The notes under the pieces were generated by a model. It saw only the letters and a program-made list of their open reading frames with translations, did no database searches and was not told where the DNA came from. A program made the translations under genes and the position numbers. Positions 3,868 to 10,722 of a stretch of 14,070 nucleotides of DNA are shown piece after piece. Position 1 is the stretch's first letter. Each line of letters starts with the position of its first letter. The DNA comes from a virus (Duplodnaviria; Heunggongvirae; Uroviricota; Caudoviricetes): the IMG/VR virus record IMGVR_UViG_2648501165_000006; one strand, given 5' to 3'.

Positions 3868-4458
3868 TTAGCATGATTCAGGGGAAACCCCAATATTAAA
3901 TATGAGTGACTCTCCTGAATCAGCATAATAATGTAATATTATTGACTTACGTTGTTTTCTTGCTTCGTAGAATAAACGCTCTTGCGGCGATAATTTGTGA
4001 AAACTGCCGGATGCACAATATATGTTTTTTAACTTTTCGCTGGTTGCTTTTATTGTATCTTCTGAGATGTATTTTAGGTATTTATCCGTATAGATGTTGC
4101 TACTATAAGAAATTAATGTTTTGCTGTTGTTGTGATGTATTGTATTTTTATCGTTGAAGTCTGTATTTTTATTTACTGTCATTAGGTTTTTAATGATTAC
4201 ATGTAATGCAATAGTCTCCCCATCATCAATTCCATATTTGATGTCATAGTCAGTATATTTATTTGTTATACCGCTTCCTGATAGCGGCACTATGTACTCT
4301 GAGAAAAATGAGTTTGCCGCGTGACCATCAAGAGCAATAGCAGTTTTTTTGTGGTAAAAATAAAACAATATTGAGAGAGTCAAAATAATAGCGACGCCTA
4401 ATGCAACCTTTAATATAGATATGGTTTTCAAAATATCGCTCCTTGTTGTAACATACAT
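3868..4458 (-). CDS. Membrane-anchored hypothetical protein in an AT-rich moron (candidate superinfection-exclusion or defence effector)
   Basis: Visibly AT-rich ORF. It has one long N-terminal hydrophobic segment (ILKVALGVAIILTLSILFYFY) followed by a ~165-aa soluble domain with two Cys. The start is ambiguous: TTG at 4479 (ORF track), ATG at 4458, or TTG at 4431 preceded by AGGAG at 7-nt spacing. It lies immediately downstream of the RHH regulator gene on the same strand. Confidence 0.5.
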   Translation of the reverse strand: MYVTTRSDILKTISILKVALGVAIILTLSILFYFYHKKTAIALDGHAANSFFSEYIVPLSGSGITNKYTDYDIKYGIDDGETIALHVIIKNLMTVNKNTDFNDKNTIHHNNSKTLISYSSNIYTDKYLKYISEDTIKATSEKLKNIYCASGSFHKLSPQERLFYEARKQRKSIILHYYADSGESLIFNIGVSPESC

Positions 4459-4521
4459 CAGTAATGTGGCGTTTTTCAATTGTATTAAAGACGTGTAATA
4501 TGTACACGCCTTTTGTTCTTC

Positions 4522-4953
4522 CTATTCAGGTATTTCAATTCCAAAACCATCTGCATCCCATGAGTTTTCACAGATGATGTAACCTAGTTCATTGAGCTTA
4601 TTAAATGTTTTTTCAAAGATGATCTGGTAATCATTATCTGCAAGTGATTCCAGTTCAAGGTCATTAAGGTTTATATAAAAACTTGTATGTCCAAGTGTTA
4701 TTTTCTTATTGATTTCATTAAAAGTTCTTTTGAAAATAATATTTGATATTTCATGCCGTGCATTGTTTGCAATAATTTTTGCTTCATAAGCAGAAATTAC
4801 GTCATCTTCATGAATATCTTTCAGAAAGCTGGTGTCAAGACGTTGTACTATTTCAGCGTTCATTGAGCGCTTATTGGCTTTTGCAGAAATTTCTATTTTT
4901 TCTTTTACTTCAACGGGAAGTCTGATCCTTAGTTGTGGATCTTCTCTGCTCAT
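4522..4953 (-). CDS. Arc/Mnt-family ribbon-helix-helix transcriptional regulator with a ~90-aa C-terminal extension
   Basis: The N-terminus MSREDPQLRIRLPVEVKEKIEISAKANKRSMNAEIVQRL matches the Mnt/Arc RHH pattern (basic beta-strand, then helices, with the ...RSMN.E... motif). The likely start is ATG at 4953 with a GGTGA ribosome-binding site; the ORF-track start at 4983 is TTG. The gene is AT-rich. Confidence 0.6.
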   Translation of the reverse strand: MSREDPQLRIRLPVEVKEKIEISAKANKRSMNAEIVQRLDTSFLKDIHEDDVISAYEAKIIANNARHEISNIIFKRTFNEINKKITLGHTSFYINLNDLELESLADNDYQIIFEKTFNKLNELGYIICENSWDADGFGIEIPE

Positions 4954-4998
4954 GTTCTTCACCAAATATTGAGTTACTTGCAATGATTGAAGTATGCC

Positions 4999-5313: not shown

Positions 5314-6140
5314 ATGACGAGTATAGCAACAGCGCTATCTACTATCAACGTGCCATTCCACGGCGCAGAACTTTATGTTGTCAATCACAACGGAGAACCG
5401 TACACCCCAATGAAACCTATCGTTGAAGGCATGGGTATGGATTGGGCTTCACAGTTTACGAAAATGAAGCAGCGGTTTAAAACCTGCATTGTGAAAATCA
5501 CAATGCAGCTTCCTGGGGATGAACAGCGCCGTGAGATTATTTGTTTGGCACTTCGCAAACTTGCTGGCTGGTTGCAAACCATCAGCCCTAACAAAGTCCG
5601 CCCTGAAATCCGCGACAAGGTAATCCAGTATCAGGAAGAGTGTGACGATGTTCTCTACGAGTACTGGACTAAAGGCCATGTGGTTAACCCACGCAAAGCT
5701 AAAAAGGCGTTGCCGGGTAAAATAACCACTGAACAGCAGGAAGCCATTAAACAACTCGTCATGAGTCGCGGTCAGTCTCTGCCAAAAGAAAAACAGGCTA
5801 AGGCGATGATCACCATGTGGTCGTCACTGAAATCTCATTTTGGCTGTTCGTACAAAGAAATTGATGAAGATCAATTCGCCGAAGCGTTGTCTCTTGTTGC
5901 TCGGGTTCCGCTTGAAGGGGAGCATCTCCCTGCTGGATCTGCATCAGAGAATGATGAAGTGGCAGTCAAGATGTTAGATGCGCTTCGTGAGGCAATTAAA
6001 ACACAGACAAAATGTTATGGTTATCCGCTGAAGCCCGGCTACCGCAGTCTGATTCATTCGCCGTCTGGTGTTCTCGGCCTGACGGAGAACNNNNNNNNNN
6101 CCACGCGGAGTACATCAACGACAAGGCAGGGTTCTTCTGA
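5314..6140 (+). CDS. Antirepressor (Ant-like N-terminal domain plus KilA-C-like C-terminal domain), interrupted by an assembly gap
   Basis: The N-terminus MTSIATALSTINVPFHGAELYVVNHNGEPYTPMKPIVEGMGMDWASQF is antirepressor-like. After the N run, the frame ...HAEYINDKAGFF-stop (ending at 6138-6140) matches the C-terminus of the minus-strand antirepressor 7124..7810. The ORF-track extension to 6315 is a frame artefact of the N10 placeholder. Confidence 0.6.
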
Positions 6141-6164
6141 CAGAACGGCGGCACAGGGATGTGC
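6028..6164 (+). repeat. Inverted repeat copy A (antirepressor C-terminal module plus ~25 bp of 3' UTR), gapped
   Basis: 6028-6090 and 6101-6164 are near-identical to the reverse complement of 7101..7359, for example CTGAAGCCCGGCTACCGCAG...GGCCTGACGGAGAAC and CACGCGGAGTACATCAACGACAAGGC. Confidence 0.8.
6091..6100. other. Assembly gap (10 N placeholder) inside a repeated antirepressor C-terminal module
   Basis: A literal run of ten n characters. By comparison with the paralogous copy at 7101..7359, the true missing length is probably ~120-130 bp. Confidence 0.95.
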
Positions 6165-6190
6165 AAAACGGAACTATCGTGACATGTCAC

Positions 6191-6215
6191 AGGCCGCTTT
6201 CGCGGCCTTGTTTTT
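6191..6215 (+). terminator. Rho-independent terminator downstream of the antirepressor gene
   Basis: Stem AGGCCGC (6191-6197), loop TTTC, stem GCGGCCT (6202-6208), then TGTTTTT. Confidence 0.6.
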
Positions 6216-6255
6216 AACGAATGCCACCGCCGCCCGGGCGGGAATCCGCAGACAC

Positions 6256-6277
6256 AAAAAAGCCCGCAACGCGGGCT
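6256..6277 (-). terminator. Rho-independent terminator immediately after the 181-aa minus-strand gene
   Basis: On the minus strand: stem AGCCCGC, loop GTT, stem GCGGGCT, followed by T6 (the plus-strand A-run at 6256-6261). The hairpin overlaps the stop codon at 6277-6279. Confidence 0.6.
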
Positions 6278-6822
6278 TATTCCTTCCATTTATCAGAAAA
6301 AAGCTCTTCTTCTAAAGGCATTGGTTCTGTTTTTGTTTTCTCAAAGAATTGATAACTGATAGTGATTGCTTCCTCTTTAAACTCTTCTTGCTCAGTTATG
6401 TTGTGGGCATCTGCGTCAACAAAAAACATAACCAGCGCATCACGATTGTGATTTACCGAATAAACTAAAAAGCAATCACTTGTTGGTATGCATTTTACTT
6501 GCACAGACGCTATATTTTTCCATGCATCCCAAGATGATTTTTTACCAGTGTGTTTTTTATCACTATCTTCTGGAATATAGTCTTGGTTATCGACATGAGT
6601 ATGCCTGACATTTAGTTTAAGCATTTCTGTCGGACGAGCAAATGCAGCATCTTTACCAAGAGATGGATGGTATCCCGTTTTCCAATACTGGGTAAAGGCA
6701 TCAGATACTTTCTTCAGCTCAAGATCAGATGCACAAAGGGCCGAGAAATTTTGCGTATGCAATACTCGACCCTTATATCTGACAATTTGATTTTTATCAT
6801 TCTGCGACGCAGACGAACTCAT
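6277..6822 (-). CDS. Hypothetical 181-aa protein, candidate toxin or abortive-infection effector (possible YafO-like motifs)
   Basis: ATG at 6822 is preceded by AAGGA. The motifs ...EMLKLNVRHTHV... and ...CFLVYSVNHNRDALVMFFVDA... resemble, from memory, conserved blocks of YafO-family mRNA-interferase toxins; this is unverified. The gene is flanked by its own terminator and lies between convergent antirepressor genes. Confidence 0.5.
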   Translation of the reverse strand: MSSSASQNDKNQIVRYKGRVLHTQNFSALCASDLELKKVSDAFTQYWKTGYHPSLGKDAAFARPTEMLKLNVRHTHVDNQDYIPEDSDKKHTGKKSSWDAWKNIASVQVKCIPTSDCFLVYSVNHNRDALVMFFVDADAHNITEQEEFKEEAITISYQFFEKTKTEPMPLEEELFSDKWKE

Positions 6823-6976
6823 AATTTTCCTTATTGTTACGAGAATCAAAGAAAGCTCGGGATACGCGACTTGCGTGATCTTTTGTCATAGTAACTTTTA
6901 CGTACTCTACGCTTCCATTGAAAGAACGTCTTGCGGCAGCTTGCGCTCTACGCATCTGCAATTTTTCGTTTCGCAT
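6797..6976 (-). CDS. Small 59-aa ORF upstream of and overlapping the 181-aa gene (candidate antitoxin or regulator)
   Basis: ATG at 6976 is preceded by GAGG at ~7-nt spacing. The N-terminus is Arg-rich (MRNEKLQMRRAQAAARR...). It overlaps the downstream gene start by 26 nt in a different frame. It is absent from the ORF track, which appears to omit ORFs of this size (shortest listed is 60 aa). Confidence 0.35.
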   Translation of the reverse strand: MRNEKLQMRRAQAAARRSFNGSVEYVKVTMTKDHASRVSRAFFDSRNNKENYEFVCVAE

Positions 6977-7100: not shown

Positions 7101-7359
7101 GCACATCCCTGTGCCGCCGCCCGTCAGAAGAACCCAGCCTTGTCGTTGATGTACTCCGCGTGAGTCTGGATATCACGCAGGCATTTGCTCACACCGACGA
7201 TGTAGCAGAACATGGTGGTCAGCTCCGCCGCCGCGCCCGATACATCGTGCCCGTCGTCCTGTAACTGGTTAAGCAGATTCATCAGCAGTGAGTTCTCCGT
7301 CAGGCCGAGAACACCAGACGGAGAATGAATCAGGCTGCGGTAGCCGGGCTTCAGTGGGG
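7101..7359 (-). repeat. Inverted repeat copy B (C-terminal module of the Bro-N antirepressor plus 3' UTR)
   Basis: The reverse complement matches copy A with a few mismatches. The repeat ends at GCACATCCCTGTGCCGCC (7101-7118). Confidence 0.8.
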
Positions 7360-7810
7360 CACTGTAGGTTTTGTTCTCTATCTTCATTGCCTGCATCACT
7401 GCTGATGCTGTGGCGTTGGCTACCTGGTCGGCAACCATCTTTATGCGTTCTTCCTGCGGGAGCGAGTTTTTAATGTAACTTCCGGTGCGGCGGATCTGAG
7501 GAAGAACCTCACCTGTAACCCATTTACGAAAGCGGTAGGGGATAGTGCCTGGTGTCACCGCATCGCGGCAGCGGAGGATCAGTGTGTAGAGGCCTGACTC
7601 GTTGATAATATTGGTTTCGCCTTGACGGCCTAAGTTAAATTTAGCCCTTTCATCATCATCAAGAGATTTTATTGACATAGTGGGGTTTGTCAGTTGAAGA
7701 GCTTTAATAACGTCTTTGGCAACAAACCAAGGATTTCCATCAATAACAATGGCTCGAATGGTTGCTTCTGATTCAAAATGAAAAACAGATGGGGTTACGT
7801 TAGCAGTCAT
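7124..7810 (-). CDS. Antirepressor with Bro-N-type N-terminal domain and KilA-C-like C-terminal domain
   Basis: From ATG at 7810 (ribosome-binding site AAGGTG) the N-terminus reads MTANVTPSVFHFESEATIRAIVIDGNPWFVAKDVIKALQL, the Bro-N signature. The C-terminal ~85 aa are near-identical to the gapped antirepressor at 5314..6140. The ORF-track extension to 7963 (MCKAHLFYGG...) is judged non-coding. Confidence 0.65.
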   Translation of the reverse strand: MTANVTPSVFHFESEATIRAIVIDGNPWFVAKDVIKALQLTNPTMSIKSLDDDERAKFNLGRQGETNIINESGLYTLILRCRDAVTPGTIPYRFRKWVTGEVLPQIRRTGSYIKNSLPQEERIKMVADQVANATASAVMQAMKIENKTYSAPLKPGYRSLIHSPSGVLGLTENSLLMNLLNQLQDDGHDVSGAAAELTTMFCYIVGVSKCLRDIQTHAEYINDKAGFF

Positions 7811-7963
7811 AGTGATCACCTTTGTAGTTAGGTTAATCACCACTACCGACGCCAATCGGTTGGTGGTGAACTGTGCAGGGTTGGCGTAACCGGCTACAAA
7901 GGACCCGGCGCACCTTTCGGTGCCCCCACACAGCCCACCATAGAATAGGTGCGCTTTACACAT

Positions 7964-8381: not shown

Positions 8382-8576
8382 CTTATCTTCTCCATGCAAT
8401 AACTGTATAAATATACAGTAGCAAATAATTTGTTTGCTATCCAGCACGTTTTGCGAATCACCTGAAAGGTAATATCTGTTCGTATTTATGGGTTATCTAT
8501 CCATATATGGTTTTTAAGGTAATAGAATAACCGGATATGCGGCGCAACGGGTGCTGCGACTATCTGGAGATTTAAC

Positions 8577-10571
8577 ATGACGGTCTCAACCGAAGTTGAC
8601 CACAACGAATATACAGGTAACGGTGTTACAACTACGTTCCCTTATACCTTTAGGATTTTCCAGAAATCTGATCTGGTGGTGCAGGTGATTGACCTTGACG
8701 AGAATATCACTGTGCTGGCTCTTGATACTGATTACGCAGTCACTGGTGCGGGAGGCTATAGAGGCGGTAATATAATACTGTCGAAGGCATTGGCCAACGG
8801 TTATCAGATCTCTATATCACGAGAGCTCCCGGTTACTCAGGAAACAGATCTGCGTAATCAGGGTAAATTCTTTGCAGAGGTGCATGAGGATGCGTTTGAT
8901 AAGCTAACGATGCTGATTCAACAATGTCGTAGCTTGTTTCGTCTTGCACTTTGCAAGCCATCAAGTATTGCAAACTGGTACGACGCTTTAAATAACAGGA
9001 TTAGAAATCTTAAAGATCCAGAAAGCCCTCAGGATGCAGTAACTTTAAGTTATCTTGAAGGGTATATAGAAGGTGGTGATAGTACTTTGCGTCCAGATAT
9101 TACAAGAACTGGAGCTGTAGGGAATAATATACAGCAAGCCATAAACTTATCTATAGCCGGTCAAACTGTAATTACGATGAAAGATGATGAAATTGTATCT
9201 TCATTGTTAAATGAATATGGTGTTGAAATTGAGCAACGCAGGGGGCGTGTATTTAATACAGAAGGTGTTCAACTAACAACGTATTCTGACCCTCGTTCCC
9301 GTTTTGTAACTGGTGACCAATATCTTAATTATGTTATTAGCAAGATGATAAAAGCAGATGGCGTGGATAAATCACAGAAAACATATATTTTGTGGTCTGG
9401 TGACTCCACGATTGTTGGTGTTAACTCTGAATTATGGCCACCAGCAACTATTGCTGATTTTTATGCAAAGAGGTATGGAATTATTGATGTAAAAAATACA
9501 TCGTTAGGTCATTCAGGTAAAACTCTATACGAATGGGGTAATTGGTATATTGATCAGGAATGGTCTGTTTTTTCTGCTGCTGATTTGATTGTTTTACGAT
9601 GGGGAATTAACGATCCATATTATGGTTATACATTGGATCAAGTAAAAGACGCATTAGATAGAGGCCTTTCCAAGTTACGAAATAACAAATCAGTTTCCCA
9701 GCAATCAATTATTATCATGTCCCCAAACTCAACATCAGACACACCAAACGGACGTGATGAAAAATGGTATGAACAGTTAACAGCCGTACTTAGAGCCAAA
9801 GCAAAACAATATAAGTGTATGTTTTTTGATACTTACGGTATGTGGCAGGATTCGCGAGGATCTGCTGGTAACTGGCTTGATGACCCTTATGGCGATGGCA
9901 GGGGAATACACCCAAACTCAACATTTAGCGCACAGATACATAAATTATTATTTGAATATATTTATGGACCGTGTGCTGTTATAAATGGGAGTAGCAACCT
10001 TTTTTCTAACAATGGTTCTTCCATACAATTCATCAATAGCTCATATCCGCCAAATACTTTTCACATGGGGACTTCATGGTGGAGAACAAACCCTGATGAT
10101 GCTTCTTGGCCTCTTGATGGTGTTATTCAGGTTGATAGATTTGTTGACGGAATAGTAGTACAAAAAAATTATGGTTATTCTTCAGATAATGCTCGCGTTT
10201 GCTTAATGAGGATTGGAAGGATTAGTGAGAATACATGGAGTACATGGCGAGGTAATCAGTATGATATGAGTGGCATATTGCAAAATGGTTGGTCTGTAGG
10301 TGAGGCAAGAAGTGGAACATATCAGAAATCAGCCGAGGGCGTTGTTACTTTATCTGCTGTTTTAACAGGTGGAAATACATCTGTTGGCACGGTTATTATG
10401 GTATTGCCAGAAGGGTTTAGACCAAAGAATGATATTTCTTATATTCCATCAGGTACTGATTCATCGGTTGCCCTCATTAATATACTTTCAAACGGTAAAG
10501 TTACAATTCAGAGCTATCCGTCAGGAACTGTTCTTGTAATTAATACGACATTCCCTTCATTAGTTAATTAG
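8577..10571 (+). CDS. Tailspike / tail fibre protein with a conserved N-terminal particle-binding domain, a central SGNH/GDSL esterase module and a C-terminal beta-rich domain
   Basis: ATG at 8577 with a GGAG ribosome-binding site. The N-terminal ~120 aa (MTVSTEVDHNEYTGNGVTTTFPYTF...DLRNQGKFFAEVHEDAFDKLTMLIQQ) fit the podovirus tail-fibre adaptor pattern. SGNH blocks are present: GDS at codons 275-277 (nt 9399-9407), GIND (LRWGINDP), and DGRGIHP with the His at nt 9909-9911. The 3' two-thirds is visibly more AT-rich than the 5' end. Confidence 0.75.
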   Translation: MTVSTEVDHNEYTGNGVTTTFPYTFRIFQKSDLVVQVIDLDENITVLALDTDYAVTGAGGYRGGNIILSKALANGYQISISRELPVTQETDLRNQGKFFAEVHEDAFDKLTMLIQQCRSLFRLALCKPSSIANWYDALNNRIRNLKDPESPQDAVTLSYLEGYIEGGDSTLRPDITRTGAVGNNIQQAINLSIAGQTVITMKDDEIVSSLLNEYGVEIEQRRGRVFNTEGVQLTTYSDPRSRFVTGDQYLNYVISKMIKADGVDKSQKTYILWSGDSTIVGVNSELWPPATIADFYAKRYGIIDVKNTSLGHSGKTLYEWGNWYIDQEWSVFSAADLIVLRWGINDPYYGYTLDQVKDALDRGLSKLRNNKSVSQQSIIIMSPNSTSDTPNGRDEKWYEQLTAVLRAKAKQYKCMFFDTYGMWQDSRGSAGNWLDDPYGDGRGIHPNSTFSAQIHKLLFEYIYGPCAVINGSSNLFSNNGSSIQFINSSYPPNTFHMGTSWWRTNPDDASWPLDGVIQVDRFVDGIVVQKNYGYSSDNARVCLMRIGRISENTWSTWRGNQYDMSGILQNGWSVGEARSGTYQKSAEGVVTLSAVLTGGNTSVGTVIMVLPEGFRPKNDISYIPSGTDSSVALINILSNGKVTIQSYPSGTVLVINTTFPSLVN

Positions 10572-10605: not shown

Positions 10606-10722
10606 AAAAACACAAATGATGATTTTGTTGTTTACTTATAACATAATAATTCATATATGGTTTGGTTTTGATGGTGTTCTACCAGAAACTGGAGATTTGA
10701 TGAATGTTAAATGGTGGTTGAT

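Follow-up and report, generated by a model that had tools for sequence, protein, structure and literature searches.

A likely deacetylase-only tailspike with a swapped-in SGNH esterase module in an epsilon15-like prophage of Escherichia coli

What does a phage tailspike do to the surface polysaccharide of its host when the domain that usually cuts sugars is replaced by an esterase? This question is raised by the tailspike gene in IMG/VR virus record IMGVR_UViG_2648501165_000006, a 14,070-nucleotide (nt) stretch of caudoviricete DNA that we refer to as the window (feature coordinates are collected in Table 1). The window carries the prophage of a temperate, epsilon15-like (Uetakevirus-type) podovirus, integrated beside yfgI in Escherichia coli, and in its spike an SGNH esterase module occupies the place of the usual sugar-cutting domain, with no beta-helix depolymerase present. 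We consider it likely that this protein is the single, deacetylase-only tailspike of the prophage and that the swapped-in SGNH module acts on an O-acetylated surface glycan.

The assignment of the central domain to the SGNH superfamily draws on a profile match, on conservation, and on fold. Pfam PF13472 (Lipase_GDSL_2) matches residues 275 to 448 at 56.4 bits, above the cutoff of 32.9 (E = 7e-15), and the SGNH motifs are therefore not chance occurrences; the same profile is matched by all 60 homologues, reaching down to 23% identity, in which conservation was counted. The Block I serine, the Block II glycine, the asparagine of the Block III GxND motif, and the Block V histidine are all present. 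Residues G275, D276, S277, T278, G343, N345, and D346 are invariant among the homologues, and G311, D440, R442, H445, and P446 are conserved in at least 90% of them. Profile and conservation thus confirm the motif blocks that an earlier, sequence-only reading of this DNA had picked out (GDS at 9399-9407, GIND, and DGRGIHP), and a second GDS at residues 167 to 169 is incidental and not catalytic.

An AlphaFold2 monomer model built on the 60-sequence alignment (mean predicted local distance difference test score [pLDDT], 83) contains a confident beta domain at residues 9 to 82, helices at residues 104 to 144, a low-confidence hinge at residues 152 to 175, a small neck, an alpha/beta domain at about residues 250 to 470, and an all-beta domain at residues 475 to 660 (pLDDT, 90 to 98). 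Structure prediction of residues ~250 to 460, which had been proposed as a check on the SGNH assignment, thus returned an alpha/beta domain, of the three-layer alpha/beta/alpha flavodoxin-like kind, with matches to SGNH folds. Carbohydrate acetylesterases were the best structural matches; the scores were 20.3 for the lipase/acylhydrolase 1yzf, 20.2 and 19.6 for Ape1 peptidoglycan O-acetylesterases, 19.2 for an acetylxylan esterase, 16.6 for the SFP21A tail fibre (9lna), and 16.0 for G7C gp63.1 (4qnl). The distal knob, which the sequence-only reading had described as a Ser/Asn/Gly-rich beta-type domain, is modelled as all-beta and contains 13.9% Ser, 8.8% Asn, and 10.3% Gly in its 194 residues. 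In comparison with the closest diverged copy, in the E. coli genome MDR_56, the ratio of nonsynonymous to synonymous divergence (dN/dS) is 0.12 for the SGNH domain and 0.16 for the knob, and this purifying selection argues for a functional protein.

The N-terminal part of the spike is a tail adaptor. Over residues 1 to 161/178, it is 74 to 85% identical (tblastn) to the spikes of epsilon15, phiV10, TL-2011b, and other phages, with 74% identity to epsilon15 gp20 residues 1 to 178, and it matches PHROG 1640 (E = 1.4e-111) and PDB entries 28lx/8ck1, structures of the N-terminal regions of the Dpo31/Carin-1 fibres (E = 4e-27). Pfam PF03906 scores 20.3 bits on it, below the cutoff of 25.2. The protein therefore carries an N-terminal tail-binding domain homologous to the N domains of epsilon15 gp20 and T7 gp17, and the conserved adaptor that had been proposed from the letters alone is real.

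That the receptor-binding module was swapped horizontally, as the same reading had suggested, is directly supported, because adaptor and module occur separately; the junction lies in the hinge at residues ~155 to 175. On the adaptor side, megablast found 491 complete E. coli genomes in which the match, at ~84% identity, is confined to nt 1 to ~465 of the gene. On the module side, the shared unit comprises residues ~175 to 664 (neck, SGNH domain, and beta-sandwich knob), of which the SGNH-plus-knob part was found in 3 of 5,426 complete E. coli genomes (blastn). In one of these three, MDR_56, the same module belongs to a P22-like prophage located at argW and is joined to a head-binding domain of the P22 type; similarity to that spike starts at about residue 175 and amounts to 79% amino acid identity over residues 175 to 664 and 90% in the SGNH core. 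The module stands behind five adaptor types altogether (epsilon15/T7-type, P22-type, TSP1/Gp66-type, tail-collar, and Mtd-type); TSP1/Gp66-type N domains precede it in 13 of the 60 homologues, and pectate-lyase-like segments also precede it in the wider protein collection. The pLDDT is below 50 at residues 152 to 175 and 73 to 79 beyond, and neck residues N212, G215, G223, G246, E248, and Y249 are conserved across the family.

Base composition changes along the gene. In codons 1 to 155, the guanine-plus-cytosine content is 0.44 overall (GC) and 0.42 at third codon positions (GC3), and in the remainder GC is 0.37 to 0.385 and GC3 is 0.19 to 0.27. The shift toward AT-rich sequence noted earlier therefore holds, but the description of the 5′ end as GC-balanced overstated a value that lies below the E. 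coli average. Relative to the MDR_56 copy, synonymous divergence (dS) is 0.53 in the SGNH core (9327-9986) and 1.37 in the knob (9987-10568), with the neck saturated, and the much lower value in the core hints at further mosaicism by recombination of submodules.

An exhaustive profile-free search, with clusters defined at 50% identity, recovered 839 clusters at E ≤ 1e-3, 549 at E ≤ 1e-10, and 251 at E ≤ 1e-30. Of the 150 best hits listed, the majority cover both the SGNH domain and the knob. The module is thus rare in E. coli and not rare among phages. The view that esterase tailspikes are much rarer than glycosidase or lyase tailspikes fits E. coli and is outdated as a general statement (PMC7693777, PMC13123978, bioRxiv 10.64898/2026.07.31.742079).

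The genomic setting is that of a tailspike. The gene is 100% identical to positions 1440085-1442079 of NZ_CP157165, from the bovine E. coli strain UTAK-1 (WP_046123179, annotated as “SGNH/GDSL hydrolase family protein”), and over its right-hand 8 kb the window matches the UTAK-1 genome at 99.8% identity. The window encodes, in order, a portal, a capsid, a T7-gp14-family core protein, an SLT-domain protein, and a 1004-residue internal protein; a reverse-strand accessory block (Arc-like protein, antirepressors, and YafO-family toxin) and then the spike; and, 3′ of the spike, two holins, a GH19 endolysin, an Rz-like protein, and the host genes yfgI and yfgH. The spike gene thus lies between the genes for internal virion/ejection proteins and the lysis cassette, as gp20 does in epsilon15, which shares the gene order of the prophage, and a 4.7-kb moron/antirepressor block is inserted upstream of it. 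In epsilon15, two O-antigen conversion genes separate the spike from the lysis cassette (L007, 12255-13646), whereas in the window a holin gene (10711/10723) follows the spike directly after a gap of 139 nt, and no O-antigen conversion gene was recognized there or anywhere else in the window.

These features suggest how the spike may work. Residues 1 to 155 would dock it on the tail, presumably as a trimer, and would be followed by a flexible hinge; the knob and the esterase cleft would then bind an O-acetylated surface polysaccharide. With Ser277 as the predicted nucleophile, activated by His445, and with the oxyanion stabilized by Gly311 and Asn345, O-acetyl esters would be hydrolysed without cleavage of the chain, and repeated cycles of binding, deacetylation, and release could bring the virion through the polysaccharide layer to the outer membrane. 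Such a descent has been demonstrated for G7C gp63.1, according to the summaries in PMC13123978 and PMC10743462.

Deacetylase tailspikes, including those that combine a T7-type N domain with an SGNH domain, have already been described, and the locus introduces no new principle. The closest described relatives are the spikes of the Pectobacterium Studiervirinae phages PPWS4, PP47, PP81, and Q19, which were reported as a T7-like N domain plus an SGNH hydrolase (PMC7693777). PPWS4 gp45 is 29% identical to the window protein over 438 residues covering the neck, the SGNH domain, and the start of the C-terminal domain (BLASTP E = 7e-42; Foldseek E = 3.7e-41), and the two proteins contain an identical GDGRGIHPN string. 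The Pectobacterium spikes also share the logic of the T7/epsilon15-type adaptor and the gene position before a holin. Because the PPWS4-type spikes share both architecture and sequence family with it, with homology over the neck, SGNH domain, and C-terminal domain and a common Block V signature, the window protein belongs to a known kind. However, the alignment to PPWS4 ends at query residue 548 and leaves the distal C-terminal part unmatched, and the PPWS4-type phages infect a plant pathogen and are lytic and T7-like, in contrast to the element studied here, which is a temperate, epsilon15-like prophage of E. coli.

Relationships with other esterase spikes are more distant. The sequence-only reading had compared the protein with the O-antigen deacetylase gp63.1 of E. 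coli phage G7C (PDB 4QNL), and this comparison is apt as an analogy of fold and role but does not extend to family membership: hhalign gave a probability of 0.7% (E = 0.085), and the gp63.1 domain set (Tail_spike_N, Gp63_3rd, G7C_GBD, and G7C_C), including its C-terminal domains, was not found in the window protein. Gp63.1 has a TSP1/Gp66-type N domain, a galactose-binding-like domain, and a G7C_C domain, and on its N4-like phage it forms a branched complex together with a second spike. Epsilon15 gp20 comes from the same type of phage, has a homologous adaptor, and also bears an SGNH esterase “petal” (bioRxiv 10.64898/2026.07.31.742079), but it is a protein of 1070 residues with a beta-helix endorhamnosidase and a beta-sandwich, to which a petal with a canonical DxxH is appended, whereas the window protein is esterase only; the petal was likewise rejected as a true relative (hhalign E = 0.65; fold-level likeness only). 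In the MDR_56 spike (WP_078081080, cluster P0002), a P22 head-binding N domain (PF09008) takes the place of the epsilon15-type adaptor; clusters P0001 and P0002 have 94 and 270 members, respectively. Among the receptor-binding proteins of Klebsiella prophages, those with an SGNH domain rank with the commonest, and two of them are active on p-nitrophenyl acetate (PMC13123978); these proteins, the Vi phage fibres, and gp55 of Pectobacterium phage PP99 belong to the same functional class, that of esterases deacetylating capsule or O antigen. Gp55 removes O-acetyl groups from 6-deoxy-L-talose (PMC6989608). The Foldseek matches to Vi06 (E = 4e-11) and PP99 (E = 5e-10) are fold-level only, at 9 to 15% identity, and tblastn found no match to PP99 gp55, the proven 6-deoxytalose deacetylase, or to the Vi-phage proteins. 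Overall, the structural parts of the earlier interpretation are all supported.

UTAK-1 belongs to serogroup O45 and has a gene for an O-acetyltransferase in its O-antigen cluster. The O45 unit consists of N-acetylfucosamine, 2-O-acetyl-6-deoxytalose, and glucose (PMC12093740, PMC7685785), and 2-O-acetyl-6-deoxytalose is the most specific substrate candidate because the lysogen is O45. We propose the 2-O-acetyl group on the 6-deoxy-L-talose of the O45 O antigen only tentatively, as a possible substrate that we would not bet on. Inferring the receptor from the serogroup of the lysogen is a weak approach, since UTAK-1 is O45, OkiPb01711 is O84, with an O cluster that also holds an acyltransferase gene, and MDR_56 has an O cluster of yet another type, with rhamnose/fucose.

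Several observations weigh against the deacetylase reading. The O84 strain OkiPb01711 has a spike 99.3% identical to that of UTAK-1; it is encoded by a prophage that also sits at yfgI and is a different mosaic, and because of this near-identical spike the O type of the lysogen does not uniquely predict the receptor. The spacing of the canonical DxxH motif is not found in Block V, where the position three residues before the histidine is Arg442 in 57 of 59 family members and Asp440 lies five residues before it. No measured activity was found for the window protein or for any member of its sequence family, and the activities of the PPWS4, PP47, PP81, and Q19 spikes are predictions only (PMC7693777).

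Because the O45, O84, and MDR_56 clusters differ, a receptor common to the strains is a live rival: the spike would still be an esterase, but its substrate would be an acetylated glycan independent of serogroup, such as colanic acid with O-acetylated fucose or the enterobacterial common antigen (ECA). Colanic acid and ECA are both O-acetylated, the spikes are 99.3 to 100% identical at the nucleotide level in the O45 and O84 strains on different mosaic backbones, and both genomes hold complete colanic-acid clusters with wcaF and/or wcaB acetyltransferase genes. However, O-antigen clusters are often exchanged in E. coli, so that a prophage can outlast a serogroup switch, and both O clusters encode acetyltransferases of their own. 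In addition, colanic acid is poorly expressed at 37°C, and the esterase spikes that have been characterized (G7C, PP99, and the epsilon15 petal) act on O antigen, with the Vi phages acting on Vi capsule. On this evidence we regard a serogroup-independent glycan as an unlikely target, although one worth keeping in view.

The unusual Block V is the main argument for the view that the SGNH domain has lost catalysis wholly or in part and is only a carbohydrate-binding scaffold, which would make the spike a nonenzymatic adhesin. Across the family the block reads D-G-R-[GA]-[IV]-H-P in place of D-x-x-H, with H445 and D435 present in 59 of 59 sequences, R442 and D440 each in 57 of 59, and an invariant proline after H445; when a small SGNH protein of the canonical kind was aligned by hhalign, the alignment ended before this block. 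The arginine at the canonical Asp position and the lack of measured activity noted above would both fit an inert domain. However, in more than 500 diverged clusters the serine, glycine, asparagine, and histidine vary hardly or not at all, and they are under purifying selection, as is typical of a working active site. Many but not all members of the superfamily have the triad Asp of DxxH, which is not among the four residues after which the superfamily is named. A Ser-His dyad is enough for activity in some SGNH enzymes, among them the Streptomyces scabies esterase (Wei et al. 1995, as cited in PMC7693777), and the conserved Asp440, two residues upstream of the canonical position, could replace the missing Asp. 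A dead domain thus appears improbable, and under the preferred deacetylase reading either Asp440 may complete the triad or the enzyme may work as a Ser-His dyad.

A lipid-directed or acyl-transferring role, in which the domain would, for example, weaken the outer membrane by deacylating lipopolysaccharide or phospholipid, or would be an acetyltransferase, is very improbable, given that the best structural matches are carbohydrate acetylesterases, that no acetyl donor is available to a virion enzyme outside the cell, that all characterized phage-tail SGNH proteins are polysaccharide deacetylases (PMC6989608, PMC13123978, bioRxiv 10.64898/2026.07.31.742079), and that a distal knob of the receptor-binding-protein type suits glycan recognition.

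A homologous spike occurs in a different context on a siphovirus-like prophage contig (L010, 7911-11708), where the module of the spike is 76% identical and the gene directly behind it encodes a membrane acyltransferase of the Acyl_transf_3 type; a small secreted SGNH protein, which has a canonical DGVH, is encoded on the opposite strand. This pair looks like an O-acetylation conversion module, and its location beside an esterase spike ties the family to acetyl-based surface chemistry. The position of the pair directly behind the homologous spike also prompts the idea that the spike might remove acetyl groups installed by a prophage and so reverse acetyl-based seroconversion. One could combine these threads and speculate that the DGR[GA][IV]HP family uses noncanonical catalysis in which the arginine binds an anionic group of the substrate, and that the spike either targets a structure common to serogroups O45 and O84 or reverses acetyl seroconversion; taken as a whole, we find this combination doubtful.

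Removal of the 2-O-acetyl group of 6-deoxytalose is a receptor hypothesis that can be tested, for a prophage found in bovine E. coli of serogroups O45, one of the “big six” serogroups of Shiga toxin-producing E. coli, and O84. One receptor module moving among epsilon15-type, P22-type, siphovirus, and other adaptors is useful for host-range prediction, and such shuffling may also be useful for engineering phages or spike-based diagnostics.

Two further comparisons of prophages touch on this mobility. An epsilon15-like prophage from a sequencing-run assembly (L009, 8001-9992) lies next to yfgG/pdeF, with yfgI and yfgH missing, and its spike has the same adaptor with a module that is only 51% identical, which indicates that the pairing of adaptor and module arose or diverged more than once. 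The O84-strain prophage (L012, 1-8800) and the UTAK-1 prophage (L001, 12154-19805) have the spike and lysis genes in common and differ in internal virion proteins and accessory genes, so the spike travels between distinct mosaic backbones at one integration site. The blastn search with the SGNH-plus-knob part gave two matching places in UTAK-1 (NZ_CP157165) and three in OkiPb01711 (NZ_AP042673), and these genomes thus contain extra partial copies or related segments elsewhere.

Table 1. Features of the tailspike gene and its immediate flanks in the window
Feature	Position	Strand	Remark
Tailspike gene	8577..10571	+	664 codons plus stop; ATG start; open reading frame intact
GGAG ribosome-binding site	8566..8569	+	7 nt 5′ of the ATG; read from sequence
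Tail-attachment adaptor, epsilon15 gp20/T7 gp17-N type, residues 1-155	8577..9041	+	Homology
Hinge and neck, residues 156-250	9042..9326	+	Shared mobile module starts at about residue 175
SGNH/GDSL hydrolase domain, residues 251-470	9327..9986	+	
Block I G-D-S-T, residues 275-278, predicted nucleophile Ser277	9399..9410	+	Invariant in 60/60
Block II G-H-S-G, Gly311 as predicted oxyanion-hole glycine	9507..9518	+	At least 90% conserved
Block III G-I-N-D, residues 343-346 (Asn345)	9603..9614	+	G343, N345, and D346 invariant
Block V variant D-G-R-G-I-H-P, residues 440-446 (His445)	9894..9914	+	
C-terminal beta-sandwich knob, residues 471-664	9987..10568	+	Ser/Asn/Gly-rich
Stem-loop just 3′ of the stop codon	10576..10608	+	13-bp stem, 7-nt loop

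The stem-loop that follows the stop codon is probably a transcription terminator or attenuator. Its minimum free energy is -18 kcal/mol (z = -4.1), none of 200 shuffled sequences folded equally well, and in epsilon15 a terminator is annotated at the corresponding site, 3′ of gp20. The stem is followed by no T run, and a terminator function is proposed here on that understanding; a simple terminator scan did not detect this hairpin, and the sites that it reported were all at chance level.

Two pairs of direct repeats, ATyCATATATGGTTT at 8499-8513 and 10649-10663 and CTGGAGATTT at 8564-8573 and 10689-10698, are placed 5′ of the start codons of the tailspike and holin genes; the string CTGGAGATTT, which holds the tailspike ribosome-binding site, is thus found again 5′ of the holin gene. 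Since each repeat sits just 5′ of the start of the next gene, they may be expression signals. We rejected the idea that these short repeats mark cassette boundaries: there are only two copies, and for the ATyCATATATGGTTT pair, with two matches against 0.14 expected, 3 of 200 shuffles were equally good.

Between the internal virion protein and the spike, the accessory genes at 3868-4983 and 6277-6849, both on the reverse strand, are AT-rich (GC, 0.33); they encode a 203-residue protein that matched no family, an Arc-like DNA-binding protein, and a homologue of the YafO-family toxins for which no antitoxin partner was recognized. A 10-N assembly gap at 6092-6101 lies inside an antirepressor gene and falls on the segment GYPLKPGYRSLIHSPSGVLGLTEN, which is repeated in the BRO-N gene at 7124-7963. 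Because the gap falls at this repeated segment, the open reading frame listed at 5314-6315 is a chimera across the gap.

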